Shown here: one piece after another, positions 424 to 64,000 of the stretch
Layout: the number at the start of each line of letters is the position of its first letter
How positions within the stretch are numbered: the first letter of the stretch is position 1
Origin: Gemmatimonadota bacterium
GTDB taxonomy: Bacteria > Gemmatimonadota > Gemmatimonadetes > Palauibacterales > Palauibacteraceae
Assembly (NCBI GenBank): GCA_965116475.1
Contig: OZ220691.1
Location: 800,001 to 864,000 of the forward strand
DNA length: 64,000 nucleotides
Direction of reading: 5' to 3'
Made by a program: the position numbers and the translations under genes
Notes under the pieces: model-generated
The model's input: the letters and a program-made list of their open reading frames with translations, nothing else
Told to the model about the DNA's origin: nothing
Database searches by the model: none

Positions 424-1488
424 TCACTTCTCTTTCGACTCCACCTCTCCGACGACTGCCGCTTCGGCATCCTCCGATCCGGCATCCGCCGCGGGCTCCG
501 GGTTGTCGGCCGCCTCGGCCTTCGCCTCGGGCTCCGGGCTGTCGGCCGCTTCGGCCTTCGCCTCGGGCTCCGGGCTGTCGGCCGCGCTGTCGGCCGCTTC
601 GGCCTTCGCCTCGCTCTCGGCCGGCTCGGCGGCGCCGTCGGCGCTCTCTATCACGGCCGGATGGTGCAGTCGCTGCGCGATGACCTCGGGACGCGGCTTT
701 CGCCTCGGCCTTCGGCGGCGCGAACCGCCGCCGGCGTCGGCGACCCCGCCGGCGTCGCTCGAATACGTGTACGCCTGCGACTCGGCCTCTTCGCGTCCCG
801 CCTCCGGAATCTCGCGCCGCGACGCCTCCACGACATCCGCGATCGAGCGCGTGATGAGGGAAACGGAGCGAATCGCGTCATCGTTGCCCGCGATGGCGAT
901 CGTGAGGAGGTCCGGGTCCGCATTCGTGTCCGCGATCGCGACGACCGGGATGCCGAGGCGGTTCGCCTCGCGCACCGCGATATCCTCGCGGGTGGAATCC
1001 ACCACGAACACGAGCCCCGGCAGCCGCGTCATCTCCTTGATGCCGGACAGGTAGCGGTCGAGCTTCTGGCGCTCCCGCTCGAGGAGCAGCCGCTCCTTCT
1101 TCGTGTAGTACTCGAACGCCCCTTCCTCGACGCCCCGCTCGAGTTCCTTCAGGCGGGCGATGTTCTTCTTGATCGTCTGGAAGTTGGTGAGCATCCCGCC
1201 GAGCCAGCGTTCCGTGACGTAGAAGGAACCGCACCGCTCGGCCTCGCCGCGCACGACGCGGGCGAGTTGGGACTTGGTGCACACGAAGAGCACGGATTTG
1301 CCCTCGACGATCGTCTGGCGCACGAGTTCGTGGGCCCGTTCGAGCTCCCGCTGCGTCTTCTTGAGATCGATGAGGTAGATCCCGCCGCACTCGGCGAAGA
1401 TGTATTTCCGCATCTTCGGGTTCCAGCGATGTGTCTGGTGCCCGAAGTGTACGCCCGCCTTCAAGAGGTCCTGCAGCTCGACGCCCAT
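424..1488 (-). CDS. rpsB: 30S ribosomal protein S2 with long acidic C-terminal extension
   Basis: LLKAGVHFGHQTHRWNPKM, ERWLGGMLTNF, DTNADPD, GNDDAIRS motifs. Confidence 0.98.
   Translation of the reverse strand: MGVELQDLLKAGVHFGHQTHRWNPKMRKYIFAECGGIYLIDLKKTQRELERAHELVRQTIVEGKSVLFVCTKSQLARVVRGEAERCGSFYVTERWLGGMLTNFQTIKKNIARLKELERGVEEGAFEYYTKKERLLLERERQKLDRYLSGIKEMTRLPGLVFVVDSTREDIAVREANRLGIPVVAIADTNADPDLLTIAIAGNDDAIRSVSLITRSIADVVEASRREIPEAGREEAESQAYTYSSDAGGVADAGGGSRRRRPRRKPRPEVIAQRLHHPAVIESADGAAEPAESEAKAEAADSAADSPEPEAKAEAADSPEPEAKAEAADNPEPAADAGSEDAEAAVVGEVESKEK
490..625 (-). repeat. Imperfect 36-nt coding tandem repeat (PEPEAKAEAADS) in S2 tail
   Basis: gccttcgcctcgggctccgggctgtcggccgc repeated in DNA; EAKAEAAD occurs three times in protein. 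Confidence 0.85.
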
Positions 1489-1511
1489 GCGCTCGGCTTT
1501 CCGCCTTCCCG

Positions 1512-1907
1512 CTATCGTTTGGAGAACTGGAAGCGCTTGCGCGCCTTGGGACGACCCGGCTTCTTCCGCTCGACGATGCGGGGATCGCGGGTCAGCATGC
1601 CGTGAGACCGCAAGGTCCGCCGGCGGTCTTCATCCATTGCGAGGAGGGCGCGCGCGATGCCCAGGCGCGTGGCCTCCGCCTGCCCGGTGACTCCCCCACC
1701 GCGCACCCGGACGGCGATGTCGTACGATGTCCGCGTCCCGGTGACGTCGAGGGGCGCCGCGACGAGCGAACGGTGCCGCGGGATCGTGAAATACTCTTCG
1801 AACGCCCGACCATTCACGTTCACGACGCCCACACCACGTTTCATCGTGATGCGGGACACCGACCTCTTCCGGCGTCCGACCGACTGGACCTGTTCCGTTT
1901 CCGCCAA
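1512..1907 (-). CDS. rpsI: 30S ribosomal protein S9
   Basis: GRRKRSVSR, GGGVTGQAEA, LTRDPRIVERKKPGRPKARKRFQFSKR; TTG start. Confidence 0.98.
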   Translation of the reverse strand: MAETEQVQSVGRRKRSVSRITMKRGVGVVNVNGRAFEEYFTIPRHRSLVAAPLDVTGTRTSYDIAVRVRGGGVTGQAEATRLGIARALLAMDEDRRRTLRSHGMLTRDPRIVERKKPGRPKARKRFQFSKR

Positions 1908-1953
1908 CTCTCGTCTCCCTGGCAGCCCTGTGCGCGCTGCCGCTATTCCGCCG

Positions 1954-2391
1954 CTATGCCGAGATCGTGTCGAAGGGGCGGGGGTGCTGAGGCGCGTGCG
2001 GATGCTCCGGCCCCGCGTACACTCTCAGCTTTCCGAGCATCTGCCGGCCGAGCGTGTTCTTCGGCAGCATGCCCTTCACGGCCAGCTTGATCACCCGGTC
2101 GGGGTGCCGGTCGAGCAGGCGTCGGAAGGGGATGAAGCGCTCTCCGCCCATGTAGCCCGAATGTCGGAAGTATTCCTTCTGATCCGCCTTGTTCCCGGTC
2201 AGCCGCACGCGCTCCGCGTTCACGACGACCACGTAGTCGCCGGTGTCGAGGTGCGTGCTGTAGATCGGCTTGTGCTTGCCGCGAAGGACGGTCGCGATCC
2301 TCGTCGCGAGACGGCCGAGAACCTGATCCGCGGCGTCGACCACGTACCAGTCCCGTTCGATCTCCCCCGCCTTCACCGAGTACGTCTTCAT
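1954..2391 (-). CDS. rplM: 50S ribosomal protein L13
   Basis: MKTYSVK...[36 protein letters not shown]; start set at ATG 2391. Confidence 0.98.
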
Positions 2392-2428
2392 CCGTTCTGC
2401 CCACCTGGAAAAACGTTCCGCCCACCTC

Positions 2429-2451
2429 AAAAAAACCGCCCGGCGGGACGG
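2429..2451 (-). terminator. Terminator-like hairpin upstream of rplM
   Basis: CCGTCC-CGCC-GGGCGG followed by T7 on minus strand. Confidence 0.6.
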
Positions 2452-2481
2452 ATGCCGAGCGCGTGAAAATGATAGCCCGTG

Positions 2482-2510
2482 AAGCTATTCAGCGCCTCGC
2501 ATGAAGTCAA
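2482..2510 (-). promoter_or_regulatory. Sigma70-type promoter for rplM operon
   Basis: TTGACT-17 nt-TAGCTT, overlapping the 3' end of the sigma gene. Confidence 0.65.
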
Positions 2511-3279
2511 TCGCGAGTGAACGTGCGTTGTCCCGGGCGGGACGGGAGGGCGGCGCGCCCCGGCGAGGGATGCTCCCGGCGCCGGGCGCCCCGTCGTTGA
2601 CGAAGCGAACGAGTCCGGACCGTTCGGCGCCCGCGCGCAGCCGCGAAAGGCCGCGCTCCTTGAGTTGGCGCGTCCGCTCACGGGACAGGTCGAGGGCCGC
2701 CGAGATCTCGGCGGGCGTCTGCGGTCTCTCGTAGCCCAGGCCGAAATAGCGGCGCACGACCTCCGACTCGAGCGGCGGCAGGTCGGTCAGACTCGCCTCG
2801 ATCGCGTTCCGCAGCCGCTCGCGAATCAGCTCGGCGCCGGGCTCGGGCGCCTGCTCGTCGGGCAGGAGTTCCTCGAAGGTACAGGAGCGCCCCGGGGCCA
2901 TCTCGTCGAGCGAGAAGCGGTGCGCGGCGGGGCCGCCGGGACGCGGATGATCGACCTGGTCGGCGATGGCCTGCGTCATGGCCCGCCGCACCCAGTAGTG
3001 CGCGTAGCTGATGAAGCGGACGCCGCGCTCCGGATCGAAGCGGTCCGCGGCGCGCACGAGCCCCAGATTCCCCTCGTTCACGAGGTCGGCCAGCGGGACG
3101 CCGCGGCCGCGGTACCCGCGCGCGACGGATACGACGAAGCGGAGATTCGCGCTGACGAGCCGCACGCGCGCCGCCTCGTCGCCGGCCCGGCTCCGCCGCG
3201 CCAGTTCCGCTTCGGCTTCCGCGTCGAGCAGGCGCTCGCGACGGATGTCCGCCAGGTAGCGTTCGAATACGCGGACCAT
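2485..3279 (-). CDS. Sigma-70 family RNA polymerase sigma factor (short RpoD/RpoS-like)
   Basis: YLADIRRERLL (region 1.2), LVSANLRFVVSVA, DLVNEGNLGLVRAADRFDPERGVRFISYA.YWVR (region 2), LSRERTRQLKERGL (region 4). Confidence 0.92.
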   Translation of the reverse strand: MVRVFERYLADIRRERLLDAEAEAELARRSRAGDEAARVRLVSANLRFVVSVARGYRGRGVPLADLVNEGNLGLVRAADRFDPERGVRFISYAHYWVRRAMTQAIADQVDHPRPGGPAAHRFSLDEMAPGRSCTFEELLPDEQAPEPGAELIRERLRNAIEASLTDLPPLESEVVRRYFGLGYERPQTPAEISAALDLSRERTRQLKERGLSRLRAGAERSGLVRFVNDGAPGAGSIPRRGAPPSRPARDNARSLAIDFMRGAE

Positions 3280-3291
3280 TGCGGGGCGCCC

Positions 3292-4119
3292 TCAGTCGAC
3301 GCCGCGCAGAATCCGGCCCCAGCGGATCTCGGTGAGCCAGGACCAGGGGCCTCTCGGCTCGCGAGCGTACGAATAGTACACCAGGAAGGGCCTTCCCCGG
3401 ATCGCATCGCGGGGAACGAAGCCCCAGTAGCGGGAATCCTCGGAATTCGACCGGTTGTCGCCCATGACGAAGTAGCTGTCGTCCGGCACGACGAGCGGCC
3501 CCCAGTTGTTCCGCGTCGTGATCGCGCCGGAGCGGCGCGCGCCATCGGTCAGGAAGCGGCGCTGCCACGCGAACTTCGGGCTCGGGGCGTCCGGGAAGTT
3601 CGACGCGGCCTTCACGTACGGTTCCTCGAACGGAACTCCGTTCAGGAAGAGCGTCGCCCGCCGCATGCGCAGCGTGTCTCCCGGCATCCCGACGATTCGC
3701 TTCACGTAGTTCGTGCGCGGCGGCTGTGCCGCGGACGCCGGTGGCTCGAACACGATGACGTCGCCGCGCGAAGGCTCGCCGAACGCGGGAAGCTCCAGGT
3801 CGGTACCGGGAATCTCGGCTCCGTACACCATCTTGTTGACGAGGAGAAAATCGCCGATAAGGAGCGTGTTCTCCATCGAGGCGGTCGGGATCTGGAAGGC
3901 CTCCACGACGAAGGTCCGGATGAAGAGAAACAGGACGAGGGCGACGAAAATGGATTTCGTCCATTCCCACATCCACCGGCCGACTGACGCGTCGCGACCC
4001 CGGCGCGCCCGGACCGTGGGAGCGCGAAACCTGCGGACGGTCTTCTCAGTCGGTTGTTTCTCCATCCCACCCATTCCCTGCACTCCCTGTTCCACGAGCC
4101 GGCGATTGGCCTTCACCAC
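3292..4119 (-). CDS. lepB: Signal peptidase I (start uncertain, may be downstream)
   Basis: AFQIPTASMENTLLIGD, YVKRIVGMPGD, GDNRSNSEDSRYWG. Confidence 0.96.
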   Translation of the reverse strand: MVKANRRLVEQGVQGMGGMEKQPTEKTVRRFRAPTVRARRGRDASVGRWMWEWTKSIFVALVLFLFIRTFVVEAFQIPTASMENTLLIGDFLLVNKMVYGAEIPGTDLELPAFGEPSRGDVIVFEPPASAAQPPRTNYVKRIVGMPGDTLRMRRATLFLNGVPFEEPYVKAASNFPDAPSPKFAWQRRFLTDGARRSGAITTRNNWGPLVVPDDSYFVMGDNRSNSEDSRYWGFVPRDAIRGRPFLVYYSYAREPRGPWSWLTEIRWGRILRGVD

Positions 4120-4164
4120 ACCAAGATGTACGGTGGAACCTCAACGGGGTCTCACCGTCCGGCC

Positions 4165-5655
4165 TCACCAGTCGACATCGATCTGCGCGCGCTGCAGCGT
4201 GCCGCTGTAATCGACGTACGCCACCTTCGTTTCCGTGTAGAACTCGTAGACTTCCCAGCCCCCTTCACGGTGCCCGTTGCCCGTGTTTTTGACACCGCCG
4301 AAGGGGAGGTGCGCCTCCGCGCCGATGGTGGGCGCGTTCACGTACGTGATGCCGTTGTCGAGTTCTTCCACGGCGCGGAACGATGCGGTCACATCCTGCG
4401 TGTAGATCGACGACGAGAGTCCGTACGGAACTTCGTTGTTGATATCGAAGGCCTCCTCGATCGTGTCGAAGCGGATCACGGAGAGCACGGGCCCGAAAAT
4501 CTCCTCGCGCGCGGCCCGGTGTTTCCGGTCGACGCCCGCGAGCACCGTCGGCTCGAAGAACCAGCCATCGCCGAGGCCGCTCTCGGCCGGCCGGCCGCCC
4601 CCCGTCGCGACCGTCGCCCCCTCCTCGCGGGCGATCGCGATGTAGCGCTCGCACTTCTCGCGGGCGGCCTCGTGGATGAGCGGACCCACGTCGACGCCGG
4701 CCTCCTGCCCGTCGCCGAGGCGGAGGGAGCGCGCTTCGTAGCACAGCCTCTCCACGAATTCGTCGTGGACCTTGCGCTGTACGAGGAGTCGGCTGGTCGC
4801 GGTGCAGCGCTGTCCCGTCGTGCCGAAGGCGCCCCACAGCACGCCCTCGAGGGCGAGGTCGAGGTCCGCGTCGGCCATGACGATCTGCGCGTTCTTGCCG
4901 CCCATCTCGAGGGAGAGGCGCTTGTGCATGCGCCCCGCGACCTCGCCGATGCGGCTGCCCGTCTCCGTGGATCCGGTGAAGGAGAGGCCGGGGACGCCGG
5001 GGTGTTCGACGATGGCGCGCCCGATCGTCTCGCCGCGGCCGTGCAGCAGCTGCACGCACTCGGGCGGCAGGCCGGCCTCGAGCAGGATTTCCACGAACCG
5101 GTGCGCGCTGTGCGGCACATCCTCCGAGGGCTTGTAGATGATGCTGTTCCCGCACAGCAGCGCGGGGAAGATCTTCCAGCTCGGGACCGCGACCGGGAAG
5201 TTGAAGGGGGTGATGATCCCGAACACGCCGATCGGACGCCGGAACGACATCGCCCACTTGCTCCGCAGCTCCGAAGGCGCCGTGCGTCCGAAGAGCCGCC
5301 GGCCCTCCACCGCCGCGTAGTAGGCCGTGTCGATGGCCTCCTGGACGTCGCCGCGCGTTTCGTCGAGCACCTTCCCCATTTCGCGCGTGGCCGTGCGCGC
5401 GAGGTCCTCCTTGTGCCGCGTGAGGAGGTCCCCCGCGTTCTTCAGCACGAGGCCCCGCTCGGGGGCCGGCGTCCTGGACCAGCGCTCGAAGCCGCGCTGC
5501 GCGGAGGCCACGGCCGCGTCCAGTTCGGACGGGCCGGTGTCCGGGAAAAGGCCGATGAGGTCCGACGTGCGCGCCGGGTTCCGGTTCTCGATGTATTCGC
5601 CGGTGGCGGGCACAGTCCACTCGCCCGCGATGTAATTCAGGAACTTCTCAGCCAT
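4165..5655 (-). CDS. NAD(P)-dependent aldehyde dehydrogenase
   Basis: IITPFNFP, FTGSTETG, LEMGGKN, GQRCTA, EEIFGP, PFGGVK. Confidence 0.96.
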   Translation of the reverse strand: MAEKFLNYIAGEWTVPATGEYIENRNPARTSDLIGLFPDTGPSELDAAVASAQRGFERWSRTPAPERGLVLKNAGDLLTRHKEDLARTATREMGKVLDETRGDVQEAIDTAYYAAVEGRRLFGRTAPSELRSKWAMSFRRPIGVFGIITPFNFPVAVPSWKIFPALLCGNSIIYKPSEDVPHSAHRFVEILLEAGLPPECVQLLHGRGETIGRAIVEHPGVPGLSFTGSTETGSRIGEVAGRMHKRLSLEMGGKNAQIVMADADLDLALEGVLWGAFGTTGQRCTATSRLLVQRKVHDEFVERLCYEARSLRLGDGQEAGVDVGPLIHEAAREKCERYIAIAREEGATVATGGGRPAESGLGDGWFFEPTVLAGVDRKHRAAREEIFGPVLSVIRFDTIEEAFDINNEVPYGLSSSIYTQDVTASFRAVEELDNGITYVNAPTIGAEAHLPFGGVKNTGNGHREGGWEVYEFYTETKVAYVDYSGTLQRAQIDVDW

Positions 5656-26835: not shown

Positions 26836-26932
26836 CGACCCCAGGCGGGCCGTGGCGACCGTCACACGCTTACCGCTGCTACCTTCACGGTCCTGACGGG
26901 ATTCACGCGCTCCGGCCCCACGGGCCTGGGGC
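26836..26932 (-). ncRNA. ffs: Signal recognition particle RNA (4.5S)
   Basis: Long hairpin (CCCCAGGC..CCGTGG / CCACGG..GCCTGGGG) with domain IV core GTCAGGACC-GTGAA-GGTAGCAGC; upstream of dnaX; TAAGAT -10 at 26939-26944. Confidence 0.93.
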
Positions 26933-46861: not shown

Positions 46862-46932
46862 TTGGCCCCCCAGGGGTCGAACCTGGATCATCGGCTCCAA
46901 AGGCCGGTGTCTTGCCATTAGACGAGGGGCCA
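46862..46932 (-). tRNA. tRNA-Gln(UUG), CCA not encoded
   Basis: TGGCCCC acceptor stem, D-loop TAATGGCAA, anticodon loop CTTTGGA, T-arm CCAGGTTCGACCCCTGG; usual position after ispE. Confidence 0.96.
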
Positions 46933-59803: not shown

Positions 59804-60190
59804 TCAGGGGCCGGGGGCGAGGTCGATTCCGCAGGCGGGACAGAAGGCTTCGCCGCCGACCAGGACTTCGGGGCATGCCGGGCATGTCCGGGGGGATGCC
59901 GTGGGCTCCCGGGGCTCGGGGGCGGGAGCCTTCGTGGGTCCACGGGCGGCGGCGTCCCGGGCGTCGATGGCCGCGCGCTCAAGGCGGGCCCGCGTGGCCT
60001 GGTACTCCTCTTCCTGGAGCTTGCCCGTTCGGTACTCCAGCTCGAGATCGCGGAGCGCCTCGATGGCGGCGTCGCGGCGCTCCGCAGCGCCGAGCGACGC
60101 GCCCGTGTCTTCGCCGGACCGGATCGCGGCCCAGATGATCGTGGCCAGCAGCACCGCGAGGATGACGCCGAAGAGGATGAATCCGGTCAC
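59804..60190 (-). CDS. Membrane-anchored protein with C-terminal zinc ribbon
   Basis: N-terminal TM, LRDLELEYRTGKL.EEEY helix, CPAC...FCPACG. Confidence 0.85.
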   Translation of the reverse strand: MTGFILFGVILAVLLATIIWAAIRSGEDTGASLGAAERRDAAIEALRDLELEYRTGKLQEEEYQATRARLERAAIDARDAAARGPTKAPAPEPREPTASPRTCPACPEVLVGGEAFCPACGIDLAPGP

Positions 60191-60708
60191 TCGTTCACCT
60201 CCCGTGGCGAACGCCGCTTCCGACGCGGACGCCCCTCCCGCCGATCCGCCGCGAGTTCGAGGGCCCGCGCCGCCGCCCCCGCCGCGTCCGCGGCCGCCTC
60301 GTCAACGACGCTTTCGGGCAGCGATGACGCGAGTCCGATTACGGGCACACCGAACTTCCGGCAGAACGCCGCCTCGCTGAGCGTGCCCCACTCGCCGGCG
60401 ATCGCGACCACCGCCTCGGAGGCCCGCGCCACGATGACGTTCCGCGCCTCTCCGAGCCCGGTCGGGATCGGGATGTTGACCCCGTCCGCCGCCGCGCCCG
60501 GATCGCCGCCGGGCAGGATCCCCAGCACGGTCCCCCCTTCCGACGAGGCTCCGTCCGCCGCCGCCCGCATGACGCCGCCCATGCCGCCGCAGACGACGAT
60601 GGCCCCGGCGCGGGCGAGGGCCGCCCCCACCGCGTGAGCCAGGCCCGCTTCCGCCGGTGCCGCGTCTCCCGAGCCGATGACGCCGATCCGCAGCGGCCGC
60701 AAGCTCAC
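60187..60708 (-). CDS. TIGR00725 family protein (LOG/DprA-like Rossmann fold)
   Basis: IGVIGSG, VVCGGMGGVM, GILPG, TGLGEARN, GTLSE; start set at GTG 60708. Confidence 0.9.
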   Translation of the reverse strand: MSLRPLRIGVIGSGDAAPAEAGLAHAVGAALARAGAIVVCGGMGGVMRAAADGASSEGGTVLGILPGGDPGAAADGVNIPIPTGLGEARNVIVARASEAVVAIAGEWGTLSEAAFCRKFGVPVIGLASSLPESVVDEAAADAAGAAARALELAADRREGRPRRKRRSPREVNE

Positions 60709-61139
60709 CGCTCCAGTTGGAGGGTGACGGGGCCGTCGTTGACCAGCTCCACCTCCATCATCGCGCCGAACTCCCCCTCGGCGACCTCGCCGCCCCTTCG
60801 GCACAGCTCCACGAAACGGCCGTAGAGCGCCCGGGCCGCCTCCGGCCGCGCCGCCCCCGTGAAGGAAGGGCGCCGTCCGCGCGACGCATCCCCGTACAGG
60901 GTGAACTGGGACACGACCAGAAGCGCCGCCCCGACCTCCCGCGCCGAGCGGTTCATGCGGCCTTCCGCGTCCGCGAACAGACGCAGGTTCCAGAGCTTGT
61001 CCGCCATCCACGCCATCTTCGCCTCGGAATCATCCGGCGCGAAACCCGCGAGGACGGCCAGCCCGGGGCCGATCGCTCCCACGACCTCGCCTCCGACCCG
61101 GACGCGGGCCTCACTGACTCGCTGAATCACGACTCGCAA
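60705..61139 (-). CDS. dtd: D-aminoacyl-tRNA deacylase
   Basis: RVVIQRV, LRLF.D, VSQFTL, GRRPSF, FGAMMEVELVNDGPVT; TTG start 61139. Confidence 0.98.
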   Translation of the reverse strand: MRVVIQRVSEARVRVGGEVVGAIGPGLAVLAGFAPDDSEAKMAWMADKLWNLRLFADAEGRMNRSAREVGAALLVVSQFTLYGDASRGRRPSFTGAARPEAARALYGRFVELCRRGGEVAEGEFGAMMEVELVNDGPVTLQLER

Positions 61140-61349
61140 TTGCGTCGTCCCTTGCCGACCCCGGCCGCTCGCGGCTGACCGCTTTTTCCACAGCACGTCA
61201 AAATCGGTGAACGACGAAAAGATGCGACAGCGCTCGGTCCCGGGCGACTCCGCTGGCGACCGATCTGGCGGTCCGTTTCAAAATCCACGTTTTTTGGACA
61301 AAATACCCACAATTTATGGACATCATTTTTTTGAAAAAACGAGAAGCTT

Positions 61350-61872
61350 GATTCGAAGCGATGAGGCCTTCGGAGCGGCGTCATGCGCTGGCTGGGAATC
61401 GGATAGGACGAAGCGGATGAAGGGGAGCCAGCCCGCAGGCACCCGGCATCCTCGTCCGGGGCTCCGGCGGCGATCCACTTCAGGGGTCCGTCAACGATCC
61501 GCGATCCCGGCGAGGGGGCGCCCCCACGGGGCACTCTGGAAGATCGCGAACAGGCGAACAGGTATGGGTAGATGCACTCAGCCCCTGGCCACCCGAAGGT
61601 GTCAGGGGCTGAGCAAGGAAGCTTGTTTACGGCCAACTACCGCCCGGTCCTGGTAGCTTGCGCGGTCTTCCAGAACCTCTCCGCGAGCCTGGTACCGTCT
61701 GTCCGACCAGCTGTGCTCGATCCCTCTTCCCTCGGTCGCCTCGTTCCGTCGCCGGAACTCCGCTTCCTCAGGCCCGGGACTCGCGCCCCGGTTTCGCGAT
61801 CTCGCGTCGGGCAACTCGCGGTGCGGTCATCGGCCTCGACCTCCGGTCGGTCGGTGCCGCCTCCCTTAGCAC
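61350..61872. ncRNA. Candidate structured non-coding RNA locus (family not recognised)
   Basis: No credible ORF; cUUCGg and GCGA hairpins on minus strand; nested long-range complementary blocks; strong promoter at right end. Extent and strand uncertain. Confidence 0.45.
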
Positions 61873-61878
61873 GCCCTG

Positions 61879-61907
61879 ATTCTAAAAAGATTTTTTTGGG
61901 TCGTCAA
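61879..61907 (-). promoter_or_regulatory. Near-consensus sigma70 promoter firing into the gene-free interval
   Basis: TTGACG-17 nt-TAGAAT with A/T tracts upstream (61930-61954). Confidence 0.8.
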
Positions 61908-61999
61908 CCTCAAACAGCGGCGAGTCGTATTTTTTTCAAAAATTGATTGATTGAATGGCCATTCCCCGTGCCGATTCGCGGGAGAAAACCGGATTTTGT

Positions 62000-63991
62000 T
62001 CAGCGGCCGTGCCAGAGGTCGGTGGGGGCGGCGTCGATGCGCGAGCCGAATCGTTCGACGTGGGCGAGGAGGCGGTTGAGGAGGGCCTCCGGGGGCAGCG
62101 TTCGGCGGAGGCCGGCGACGGTCGCGATGATGACCAGGCGTTCGCGGGCCCGGGAGAGAGCGACGTTGAGCAGGCGGGGGAAGTCCCGGTTCCGGCGCTC
62201 GTCGAGGAACCAGCTGCGGCCGGGAGGCGCGTCCACGGTGTCGATGAGGACGAGGCGCTTCTCGCGCCCCTGGAAGCGGTGGATCGTGCTCACCTCCAGT
62301 TCGGCGGGGGCGGCGCGACCGAGCCTGCGGCGGACGAGGTCGTTCAGGTGACGGGTCTGGGCGCGGTAGGGAGAGACCACCGCGATGTCGTCGATTCCGT
62401 CGCGGGCCGCCGAGCCGAGAAAGTCCGCGACGGCCTCGGCGTGAGCCCGGTTGCGCCGCGATCCATCCACGCGTTCGACCCGCGGATCGAGTTCGCTCGT
62501 GTCGAGCACGGTGAGGGCGGCCCGCTCCGTGGCCCGGCCCGTGGCCCGGCCGGCCGCGCGCTCCGCGATCTCCGGTGCGTCCCGGAGCCGCCCGCCGTAG
62601 AAGAACTCACTCACCAGTTCGCGGATGTCGGGCGCCATCCGGTATTGGAGGTCGAGCATCGCGCACAGCCCGTCGTTGGGTGAGGGCAGCATGTCGTCGG
62701 CTTCACCCACCACGCCGGCTTCGCGGAACAGGTCGGTGCGCAGCCAGCGCATGGCCGCCGGGGCGGTGCTCGACACGACCGGGGGAAGCTGCTGGAAATC
62801 GCCGACGGCGATCGCGGGGCCCGCGACCCTCGAGGCAGCGAGCGCCACGTAGGGAAGCGGCGCCGTGCTCGCCTCGTCGATGAGCAGGGACTCGAACCTC
62901 AGCTCGCGGAGTTCCTCCCGAATCGAGAGCCGGGCGAAGGTGGTGAGGACGATGTGCGCCTCCTCCAGCGCGCGTTCCGCCTGGCGCGCGATCTCGAGCA
63001 TGACGCGGCCCAGGGCGCGCGCGGACTCCGCATCGCCCCGCGAGCGCGCGAGCGAGAGCAGGCGTCCGGCCCGGGCGTAGGGGTTGAGGGCGGGAGCCCC
63101 CTCGCGCGTCGCGGCCGGCGGGCGGGTGCGCAGCCGCCCCTCATGCTCCGCGAGCGTCCGGTCCACGCCGCCGGCCCCGCCCTCGATCCGGCGCGCCAGC
63201 GCCGCGCCCAGGTCGATGCGCGAGTCGGGCGCGGCGCCGAGGTCGAACCCCACGCGAATGATCCGGTCGCTGTCGAGCATGGCCGGATCCGCGATGGAGG
63301 CGAGGCGGCGCGCGATCTCGTCCACGGCCCCGTTGGTCGTCGCCGCGACGAGCACCCGGCCGCGGAGCGCGAGTTCAAGCGCCGCGCGCGCCACGAGGCG
63401 GGACTTGCCGGTCCCGGGCGGACCCCAGACGAGTTGGGCGCTGCTGCCCAGCACCCGTTCCAGGGCGTCGCGCTGCGGCTCGTTCAGGTCAGCGGAAGAG
63501 TCGAGACGCGGGGACTCCCGGCCGAGGCGCGGCGGCAGGCGGCCGAAGGCACCGAGCACGGTGTCCGGGAAGAAGTCCCCCGGCTCGTGCCCCACCTCGG
63601 CCAGCCGCGTGGAGAGTTCGCGGAGGAGCCACGTGGGATCGAACTCGAGCTCGGCGCCGTCGAGGCGCTCTCCGAGCCACTCCGGGCTCACGGCCTGCAG
63701 GAGCCCGAGCGTGCGGTCGAAACGGTGGACGACACCGAGCGCGTCGCGCCCACCCGCGTGGATGCGCACGCGGTCCTCCGCGCGGATGTCGTATGTTCCC
63801 CCCGCGATCTGGAAGGCGTAGCGATAGCCGGTCCCCACCTCTCCCCGCAGGCGTCCGGAGAGCGCCGGGATCGGCCCGTCCAGACGGCGGCGGGAGAGGT
63901 CGGCCGCGACCGCCTCGATCTCCTCCTCGATCGCCACGCGGAGATCCGCCAACAGAAGCCACAACGACTCCCGGGAGTCAGGAGCTTGCAT
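62000..63991 (-). CDS. Superfamily 1 helicase, UPF1/DNA2/NAM7-like
   Basis: LNEPQ, GPPGTGKS, TTNGAVD, LIDEAS, GDFQQLPP, QYRM, SPYRAQ, TIHRFQGRE, LNVALSRA. Confidence 0.93.
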   Translation of the reverse strand: MQAPDSRESLWLLLADLRVAIEEEIEAVAADLSRRRLDGPIPALSGRLRGEVGTGYRYAFQIAGGTYDIRAEDRVRIHAGGRDALGVVHRFDRTLGLLQAVSPEWLGERLDGAELEFDPTWLLRELSTRLAEVGHEPGDFFPDTVLGAFGRLPPRLGRESPRLDSSADLNEPQRDALERVLGSSAQLVWGPPGTGKSRLVARAALELALRGRVLVAATTNGAVDEIARRLASIADPAMLDSDRIIRVGFDLGAAPDSRIDLGAALARRIEGGAGGVDRTLAEHEGRLRTRPPAATREGAPALNPYARAGRLLSLARSRGDAESARALGRVMLEIARQAERALEEAHIVLTTFARLSIREELRELRFESLLIDEASTAPLPYVALAASRVAGPAIAVGDFQQLPPVVSSTAPAAMRWLRTDLFREAGVVGEADDMLPSPNDGLCAMLDLQYRMAPDIRELVSEFFYGGRLRDAPEIAERAAGRATGRATERAALTVLDTSELDPRVERVDGSRRNRAHAEAVADFLGSAARDGIDDIAVVSPYRAQTRHLNDLVRRRLGRAAPAELEVSTIHRFQGREKRLVLIDTVDAPPGRSWFLDERRNRDFPRLLNVALSRARERLVIIATVAGLRRTLPPEALLNRLLAHVERFGSRIDAAPTDLWHGR

Positions 63992-64000
63992 GCCGGACCA

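Follow-up and report, generated by a model that had tools for sequence, protein, structure and literature searches.

Few natural RNAs are known to form multimers from RNA alone, and the cellular relevance of such assemblies is described as open in the available portion of PMC12990946. In OLE and GOLLD, bridges seen by cryo-EM are supported by the palindrome-switching argument of Kretsch et al., as set out in the accessible part of PMC12286853. At the datA locus of E. coli tRNA read-through controls the binding of IHF, according to the text available of PMC10950094.

Here we analysed a stretch of 64,000 nucleotides (the window) from a Gemmatimonadota bacterium and found, between the genes for an SF1 UPF1-like helicase (62000-63991, minus strand) and for dtd (60705-61139, minus strand), a stand-alone, conserved and highly structured RNA of about 300 nt that is likely very abundant and likely self-assembling, and that appears to be linked to an array of DnaA-box-like motifs. 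The probability of this reading as a whole is, in our estimate, about 0.68. That the RNA represents a new family of structured bacterial RNA is close to certain, and comparison of homologues shows a promoter and a fold with a long-range pseudoknot and a terminal hairpin that are conserved, together with palindromes that paired changes have preserved. Neither the conserved palindromes nor the linked array featured in the original prediction for this locus, which had proposed either one novel, large structured noncoding RNA of ~500 nt or a pair of convergent RNAs, with conflicting evidence as to the strand. The features of the RNA gene are as follows.

61879-61907, minus strand: conserved sigma-70-type promoter, TTGACG-17-TAGAAT
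61571-61873, minus strand: structured noncoding RNA, ~303 nt (243-308 nt in homologues), its ends placed by conservation and promoter spacing
61854-61872, minus strand: 5' hairpin P0 (GUGC/GCAC), whose loop holds the purine strand of the long-range pseudoknot
61860-61865, minus strand: 5' strand of the pseudoknot, GGGAGG, pairing with 61616-61621
61837-61853, minus strand: hairpin H1, with a covarying stem and a loop carrying palindrome site 1
61631-61835, minus strand: long irregular arm that includes a three-way junction and ends in a variable apex of GNRA hairpins (61774-61791 and 61743-61758)
61646-61677, minus strand: hairpin H4, with a covarying stem and a loop carrying palindrome site 4
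61616-61621, minus strand: 3' strand of the pseudoknot, CUUCCU, the partner of 61860-61865
61576-61614, minus strand: covarying 3' terminal hairpin (cUUCGg), followed by a U-run in some homologues

The window also contains a small SRP RNA (26836-26931) and a tRNA-Gln (46862-46932). Several irregularities were seen around the locus in related genomes: the helicase is reported as two pieces in several of them; at one locus (L199, in genome G006) about 1 kb is inserted between helicase and promoter, with two ORFs that by eye resemble a RES/Xre toxin-antitoxin pair; and one RNA run holds an insertion of similar size at 61998-62006. L100 (G042:C48:1142-1244) is a second, truncated copy, in which the helicase end and the promoter lead into just the 5' ~100 nt of the RNA before unrelated sequence takes over, through either an insertion or a misassembly.

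The stretch was matched in 20 of 24 relatives from the genus. Identity over 61586-61915 was 0.90-1.0 in the 13 close relatives and 0.61-0.80 in the seven distant ones, and over 61346-61555 it fell to 0.33-0.52 and 0.01-0.42, respectively. Since identity falls beyond the conserved core, the element is taken to be ~303 nt long, and positions 61346-61570 are, as judged from the alignments, an unconserved spacer. The proposed novel structured RNA thus stands, as a single molecule on the minus strand that begins near 61872, but neither its length of ~500 nt nor the convergent pair does. The leftward promoter already read there (61907-61879) proved to be the sole promoter-like site within 60000-64000; its pattern is kept in 51 of 53 homologues, the remaining two carrying TTGCA, and the RNA would start 6-7 nt past the -10 box.

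The conflict over the strand resolves to minus, given a folding z-score for the core of -3.85 on this strand versus -2.03 on the plus strand, and predicted pairs with 178 G-U cells versus 30 A-C cells. Covariation, which had been suggested as a check, was evident in 25 genus sequences, where 34 of 80 pairs have changed on both sides and 96.6% of the cells are paired; none of 500 shuffles reached the observed value and slid controls paired 30-48%, in a test somewhat favoured by a structure drawn from the window's own fold and the same 25-sequence alignment. The core helices covary in 52 distinct family sequences too. Overall the fold comprises a 5' hairpin pseudoknotted to the segment before the 3' hairpin, H1, the long arm with its three-way junction, and the terminal hairpin. 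P0 covaries, with GCGC/GCGC in 2 of 53 sequences and the inner pair changed from CG to UA in seven. The pseudoknot is paired in 96% of cells in the 25 genus sequences, and its duplex is predicted in all 66 listed sequences save L115, whose row is mis-cut, with matched changes such as GAAGG/CCUUC. The three minus-strand hairpins noticed at the outset (61774-61791, 61743-61758 and 61576-61614) are present and covary; the apex hairpins are missing or altered in other genera, and loops interchange among GNRA and UUCG across homologues. The 3' terminal hairpin is likely a terminator or a 3' protector.

A conserved protein-coding signature had been named as evidence that would count against an RNA. 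No start codon or frame of a small protein gene is kept among the relatives, and the lengths of the homologues spread over all three classes modulo 3. One candidate, an ORF from the ATG at 61830 with a good ribosome site, was rejected even with TGA read-through included, since its ATG is ACG or AAG in relatives and 1-2-nt indels interrupt it. The complementary blocks that the original prediction had nested across the region (61410-61417/61759-61766, 61463-61471/61748-61756, 61535-61548/61661-61674 and 61549-61555/61621-61627) do exist, as does the stem 61387-61393/61426-61432, but the blocks use the unconserved spacer and pair at chance level, and the stem lies in the spacer with its pseudoknot at chance level as well. 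Complementarity between RNA and spacer did not exceed that of shuffles (window, P=0.09; P<=0.05 at 2 of 48 loci). The GGA motifs, put at about 11, were indeed counted as 11 but show no enrichment over mononucleotide shuffles (mean 9.1, sd 2.3; P=0.28). This, together with the lack of CsrA (PF02599) in the 96% complete genome, disposes of the suggested Csr/Rsm sponge of the CsrB/RsmY type.

The Rfam search that had been called for supports novelty: no Rfam 15 family matched the window at the gathering score (OLE, ROOL, GOLLD, ARRPOF, raiA, T-box and riboswitches included), and 25 homologous loci gave three sub-threshold matches and none above. The early remark that RNase P and tmRNA hallmarks are missing was correct, and permuted forms of either were rejected because standard copies of both lie elsewhere in the genome, as does SRP. 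Readings as a dtd leader, CsrA sponge, Ms1 or T-box fail and 6S is unlikely, mostly on grounds that are weighed below. No description of the RNA was found in the literature listings covered, though supplementary motif tables could contain one.

Two models, a structural one built from the genus (R1) and one based on sequence only (R2), were used to determine the distribution of the RNA; together they may miss remote structural homologues. R2 found the RNA in 89 of 114 family genomes (Palauibacterales), the source genome included, in 54 of the 63 of good quality and in 17 of 20 genera; R1 found it in 77 of 113. The members of this family are bacteria of the sea and of sponges. The source genome has one copy, and most genomes of one genus have a second full copy. 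Three genera gave no match to the RNA, nor did five members of the genus with genomes of 2.2-3.1 Mb, and in five sister-family genomes none was seen upstream of dtd. The helicase-dtd interval is intact without it in ten genomes, so the RNA is dispensable. Outside the family the models gave weak matches, four with R1 and seven with R2, each among 151 genomes, and a further one within the order; six of these were re-scored and none of the six held. L096 is without the promoter and the neighbours. Scanning 185,579 species genomes with a pattern gave 54 matches, 43 true and 11 by chance, and 42 of the true ones are titled Gemmatimonadota or members of it. The remaining one (L259), titled Akkermansiaceae, is a full copy matching a family-genome sequence, probably through an error of title or binning. 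The same approach in metagenomes gave 35 matches (20 true, 15 by chance), and viral, phage and plasmid collections gave none. The RNA is thus without a credible match outside the family.

Four short palindromes, all outside conserved helices, are the features that bear on self-assembly.

61843-61846, minus strand: site 1 (CCGG), in the H1 loop; core CCGG, CGCG, UCGA or CAUG, palindromic in 86 of 86 sequences
61708-61713, minus strand: site 2 (CAGCUG), bulged out of the covarying arm; core AGCU, CGCG, CUAG or CAUG, palindromic in 86 of 86
61691-61696, minus strand: site 3 (GGUACC), in an internal loop; a perfect palindrome in 69 of 86, GGAUCC in two
61660-61663, minus strand: site 4 (GCGC), in the H4 loop; invariant in 86 of 86

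In a palindrome scan of 245 alignment columns and 53 sequences, where the median palindrome fraction was 0.13, these sites rank at the top. Among 66 sequences, of which 11 came from a search pattern with sites 2-4 fixed, the cores at site 1 are CCGG (47), CGCG (7), UCGA (7) and CAUG (5), and those at site 2 are AGCU (57), CGCG (6), CUAG (2) and CAUG (1), while site 3 is a perfect palindrome in 58 and site 4 is GCGC in all 66. When columns were simulated independently, site 1, with its six parsimony changes, was fully palindromic in 0 of 10,000 runs and site 2 in 34 of 10,000, or in none with four cores; the level observed at site 3 was reached in 708 of 10,000, or 66 with two cores, which gives this site weaker support. 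These simulations had no slip, whereas the palindromes had been picked with 1-2 nt of it, and the changes amount to few events on the tree (6, 3 and 7). In 20 homologues found afterwards with R2, sites 1, 2 and 4 were palindromic in all 20. At site 3, 11 of them carry GGUACC, four an extended palindrome mismatched at its centre, and five an intramolecular tetraloop hairpin; these five together with L191 make six such hairpin sequences, all of one genus. Site 3 is imperfect in 17 of the 86 sequences.

Since neighbouring bases cannot pair within one strand, switching between palindromes points to pairing between copies; and since sites 1 and 2 never have an equal core within one molecule, contacts would be from site to same site. 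The sites also vary independently and are not mutually complementary. We consider it likely, from these patterns of change, that every palindrome binds its own counterpart on a second molecule, and six-base self-duplexes at the sites are predicted at -4 to -11 kcal/mol. Palindrome switching at adjacent loop bases, as laid out in the accessible part of PMC12286853, was found in this RNA. Site 4, being invariant, permits no covariation test and could reflect a protein or tertiary contact, and parts of sites 2 and 3 are buried when a single sequence is folded. A dimer, a cage and a network are indistinguishable at the level of sequence.

Signs of expression came from the contigs of RNA runs, 8 of 24 listed, all of them picked for holding this stretch and with overlapping contigs of related organisms summed. 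In run X2 the summed depth was 1,092-5,107 over 61676-61858 versus 12-106 on the flanking genes; X3 gave a single 287-nt contig of depth 1,622 with no flank; X6, X14 and X18 reached up to 230,020, up to 309,967 and 993, respectively, with nothing outside 61608-61879; and X4, X7 and X9 were shallow (3-27). Contigs leave most of the 3' hairpin uncovered, but they are uninformative on the ends. Contig depth, which gives neither strand, ends nor true level, hints at an abundant discrete RNA, and high-level transcription of the gene is strongly hinted. If the depth signal holds, the RNA makes up a large unannotated share of some sponge and marine metatranscriptomes.

On either side of the RNA gene lies a T/A tract, and the downstream one heads the array.

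61930-61942, no strand assigned: upstream T/A tract (T5-C-A7 on minus), a putative bend or nucleoid-protein site
61326-61339, no strand assigned: downstream T/A tract (T6-C-A7 on minus), heading the box array
61281-61322, minus strand: four DnaA-box-like 9-mers phased at 11 bp, with a distal box at 61184-61192

The 9-mers are DnaA-box-like by motif match to the DnaA consensus. At <=2 mismatches the array is the densest such cluster in the genome (10 in 300 bp; the next has 9). The T/A motif itself occurs only twice in the genome, once on each side of the RNA, and a looser tract lies upstream of the RNA in 67 of 74 homologues. Of 72 homologous loci, 67 have the tract and phased boxes after the RNA, whereas in the source genome 1 of 47 looser tracts has such boxes. 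Eleven second copies of the RNA occupy sites apart from helicase and dtd. The seven of them scanned all follow an M1 peptidase gene, and the array is retained in both of the two copies inspected for it. Going by motif match, this is a cluster of DnaA-box-like motifs away from the origin, and the array may be a datA/DARS-like element. The IHF consensus matches only when two mismatches are allowed, and it does so at many places. In two low-GC reduced genomes (G015 and G047; loci L142 and L144) the RNA is lost and the promoter-like site, T/A tract and boxes are kept; the link is therefore one-sided and its functional reading a lead. That the RNA is tied to DnaA control is accordingly offered as a tentative suggestion.

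An oriC at this locus was considered and rejected, since the origin, as located from 8-mer skew together with parS, dnaA and a dif-like site, is near 1.77-1.81 Mb, 0.91 Mb away, and in genomes with both on one contig the RNA lies at least 0.23 Mb from dnaA. On the source contig (G000:C1) the likely oriC region spans 1769085-1776400, with two parS sites and dnaA followed by degenerate boxes and a trinucleotide repeat, and the dif-like site is near 14.9 kb (about 14916). A second DnaA-box-like cluster, at 2998580-2998720, sits beside two NrdR-box-like repeats.

Our preferred explanation is that copies of the RNA would associate via three to four short palindromes to form a symmetric dimer or a larger complex, and that this complex may act as a stable scaffold or sink for some protein. 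The RNA gene and the downstream array might, with some doubt, act as a single unit of control, where transcription or read-through would gate DnaA loading on a non-origin titration site, as at E. coli datA. An unlikely extension is that a compact, four-armed and very abundant RNA builds a cage, filament or condensate that couples self-assembly to replication initiation via the DnaA-titration site.

Were the RNA monomeric, its palindromic loops would bind symmetric or dimeric proteins or make intramolecular tertiary contacts, and the array would be an inherited neighbour. This is improbable in our view: although site 4 is invariant, site 3 tolerates mismatches, and the array survives without the RNA in the two reduced genomes, sequence-specific binding would preserve sequence, whereas sites 1 and 2 change and keep only their symmetry. 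The independent variation of the sites, which do not complement one another, likewise argues against a monomer, and the second copies, which keep the array in a new gene context, argue against mere inheritance. We see little chance that the RNA is a decoy that binds RNA polymerase like Ms1 or 6S RNA, despite its apparent abundance, the absence of an Rfam 6S match in any of 31 family genomes, and a build (~300 nt, a long arm flanked by short hairpins at the 5' and 3' ends) that recalls Ms1 as depicted in the accessible part of PMC9130861. Neither RF02566 (Ms1) nor RF00013 (6S) matched, the fold is branched and pseudoknotted with no open-promoter rod, unlike the ~180-200-nt rod with a central bubble of 6S, and the palindromes would go unexplained. 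Moreover, a separate 6S-like gene (G000:C1:2562925-2563061; L317), which a profile built from nine 6S genes of the class picked up at E=4.9e-11 and which folds as a rod with a central bubble, is probably 6S RNA, though missed by Rfam.

A remnant or backup replication origin, with an ARRPOF- or ColE1-like RNA acting in cis at the array, would suit an RNA that points into an A/T tract and phased boxes within a unit that moves and duplicates as a block; ARRPOF, as reported in the available parts of PMC12990946 and PMC5737381, is itself a 255-nt dimeric RNA of a plasmid replication region. We hold it very unlikely, given the single origin near 1.77-1.81 Mb, the lack of plasmid, phage or viral matches, and no mobile-element genes in the 42 flanking frames scanned. 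Equally constant neighbours could speak for a cis-regulatory leader (riboswitch- or T-box-like) of the dtd-recA-alaS genes or a partner of the helicase, which lies upstream at 55 of 56 first loci with dtd downstream at 51 of 56, and which is nearly family-restricted (72 of 75 inside the family and 1 of 225 outside; E<=1e-40). The GGUACC of site 3 is also similar to the T-box motif. But both neighbours are missing from eleven second copies and the helicase from three loci of another genus, and in eight genomes the helicase abuts dtd without the RNA. T-box leaders carry a UGGN antiterminator bulge that overlaps the terminator, whereas here the base before GGUACC varies and is no fixed U, the motif lies ~80 nt upstream of the terminal hairpin, and no T-box or riboswitch model matched, all of which makes this reading highly implausible.

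With Ms1 and 6S the RNA shares size (Ms1), apparent abundance and terminal hairpins, but it matches no model of either, is branched and pseudoknotted, and has a separate 6S-like gene in its genome. The order of stable-RNA gene, terminator, A/T-rich site and DnaA-box cluster, away from oriC, is that of E. coli glyV-X-Y/datA as given in the available text of PMC10950094, except that the upstream RNA is here no tRNA and the DnaA and IHF sites are predicted from motifs only. ARRPOF, the 255-nt homodimer of a Fusobacterium plasmid replication region, is similar in size and also pseudoknotted, dimerises via complementary pairing and adjoins replication-related DNA (accessible parts of PMC12990946 and PMC5737381); the RNA described here is alike in these respects, its pairing being predicted, but it has no Rfam match, is chromosomal and far from oriC, and was not found on plasmids.

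OLE, ROOL and GOLLD, which form an RNA-only dimer and nanocages, are likewise structured bacterial noncoding RNAs whose function is poorly understood, and their symmetric kissing contacts are likewise shown by palindrome-to-palindrome switching at adjacent bases, going by the available parts of PMC12286853 and PMC12990946; the contacts proposed here come from sequence alone. The same parts of those papers give them 550-833 nt, against which the 243-308 nt of this RNA is about half or less. Unlike them, it matches no Rfam family, has a Gemmatimonadota host and does not lie beside tRNA arrays, and it has two repeatedly switching sites plus two more palindromes, with two of the four in bulges. 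The RNA likely works like these ornate multimeric RNAs while belonging to none of them. Since it is small and easily transcribed, natural swap variants and the hairpin replacement make the rules of assembly directly testable, and screening for palindrome switching could reveal more such RNAs. Its consistent link to a DnaA-box-like array is, moreover, a functional lead that OLE, ROOL and GOLLD do not offer.
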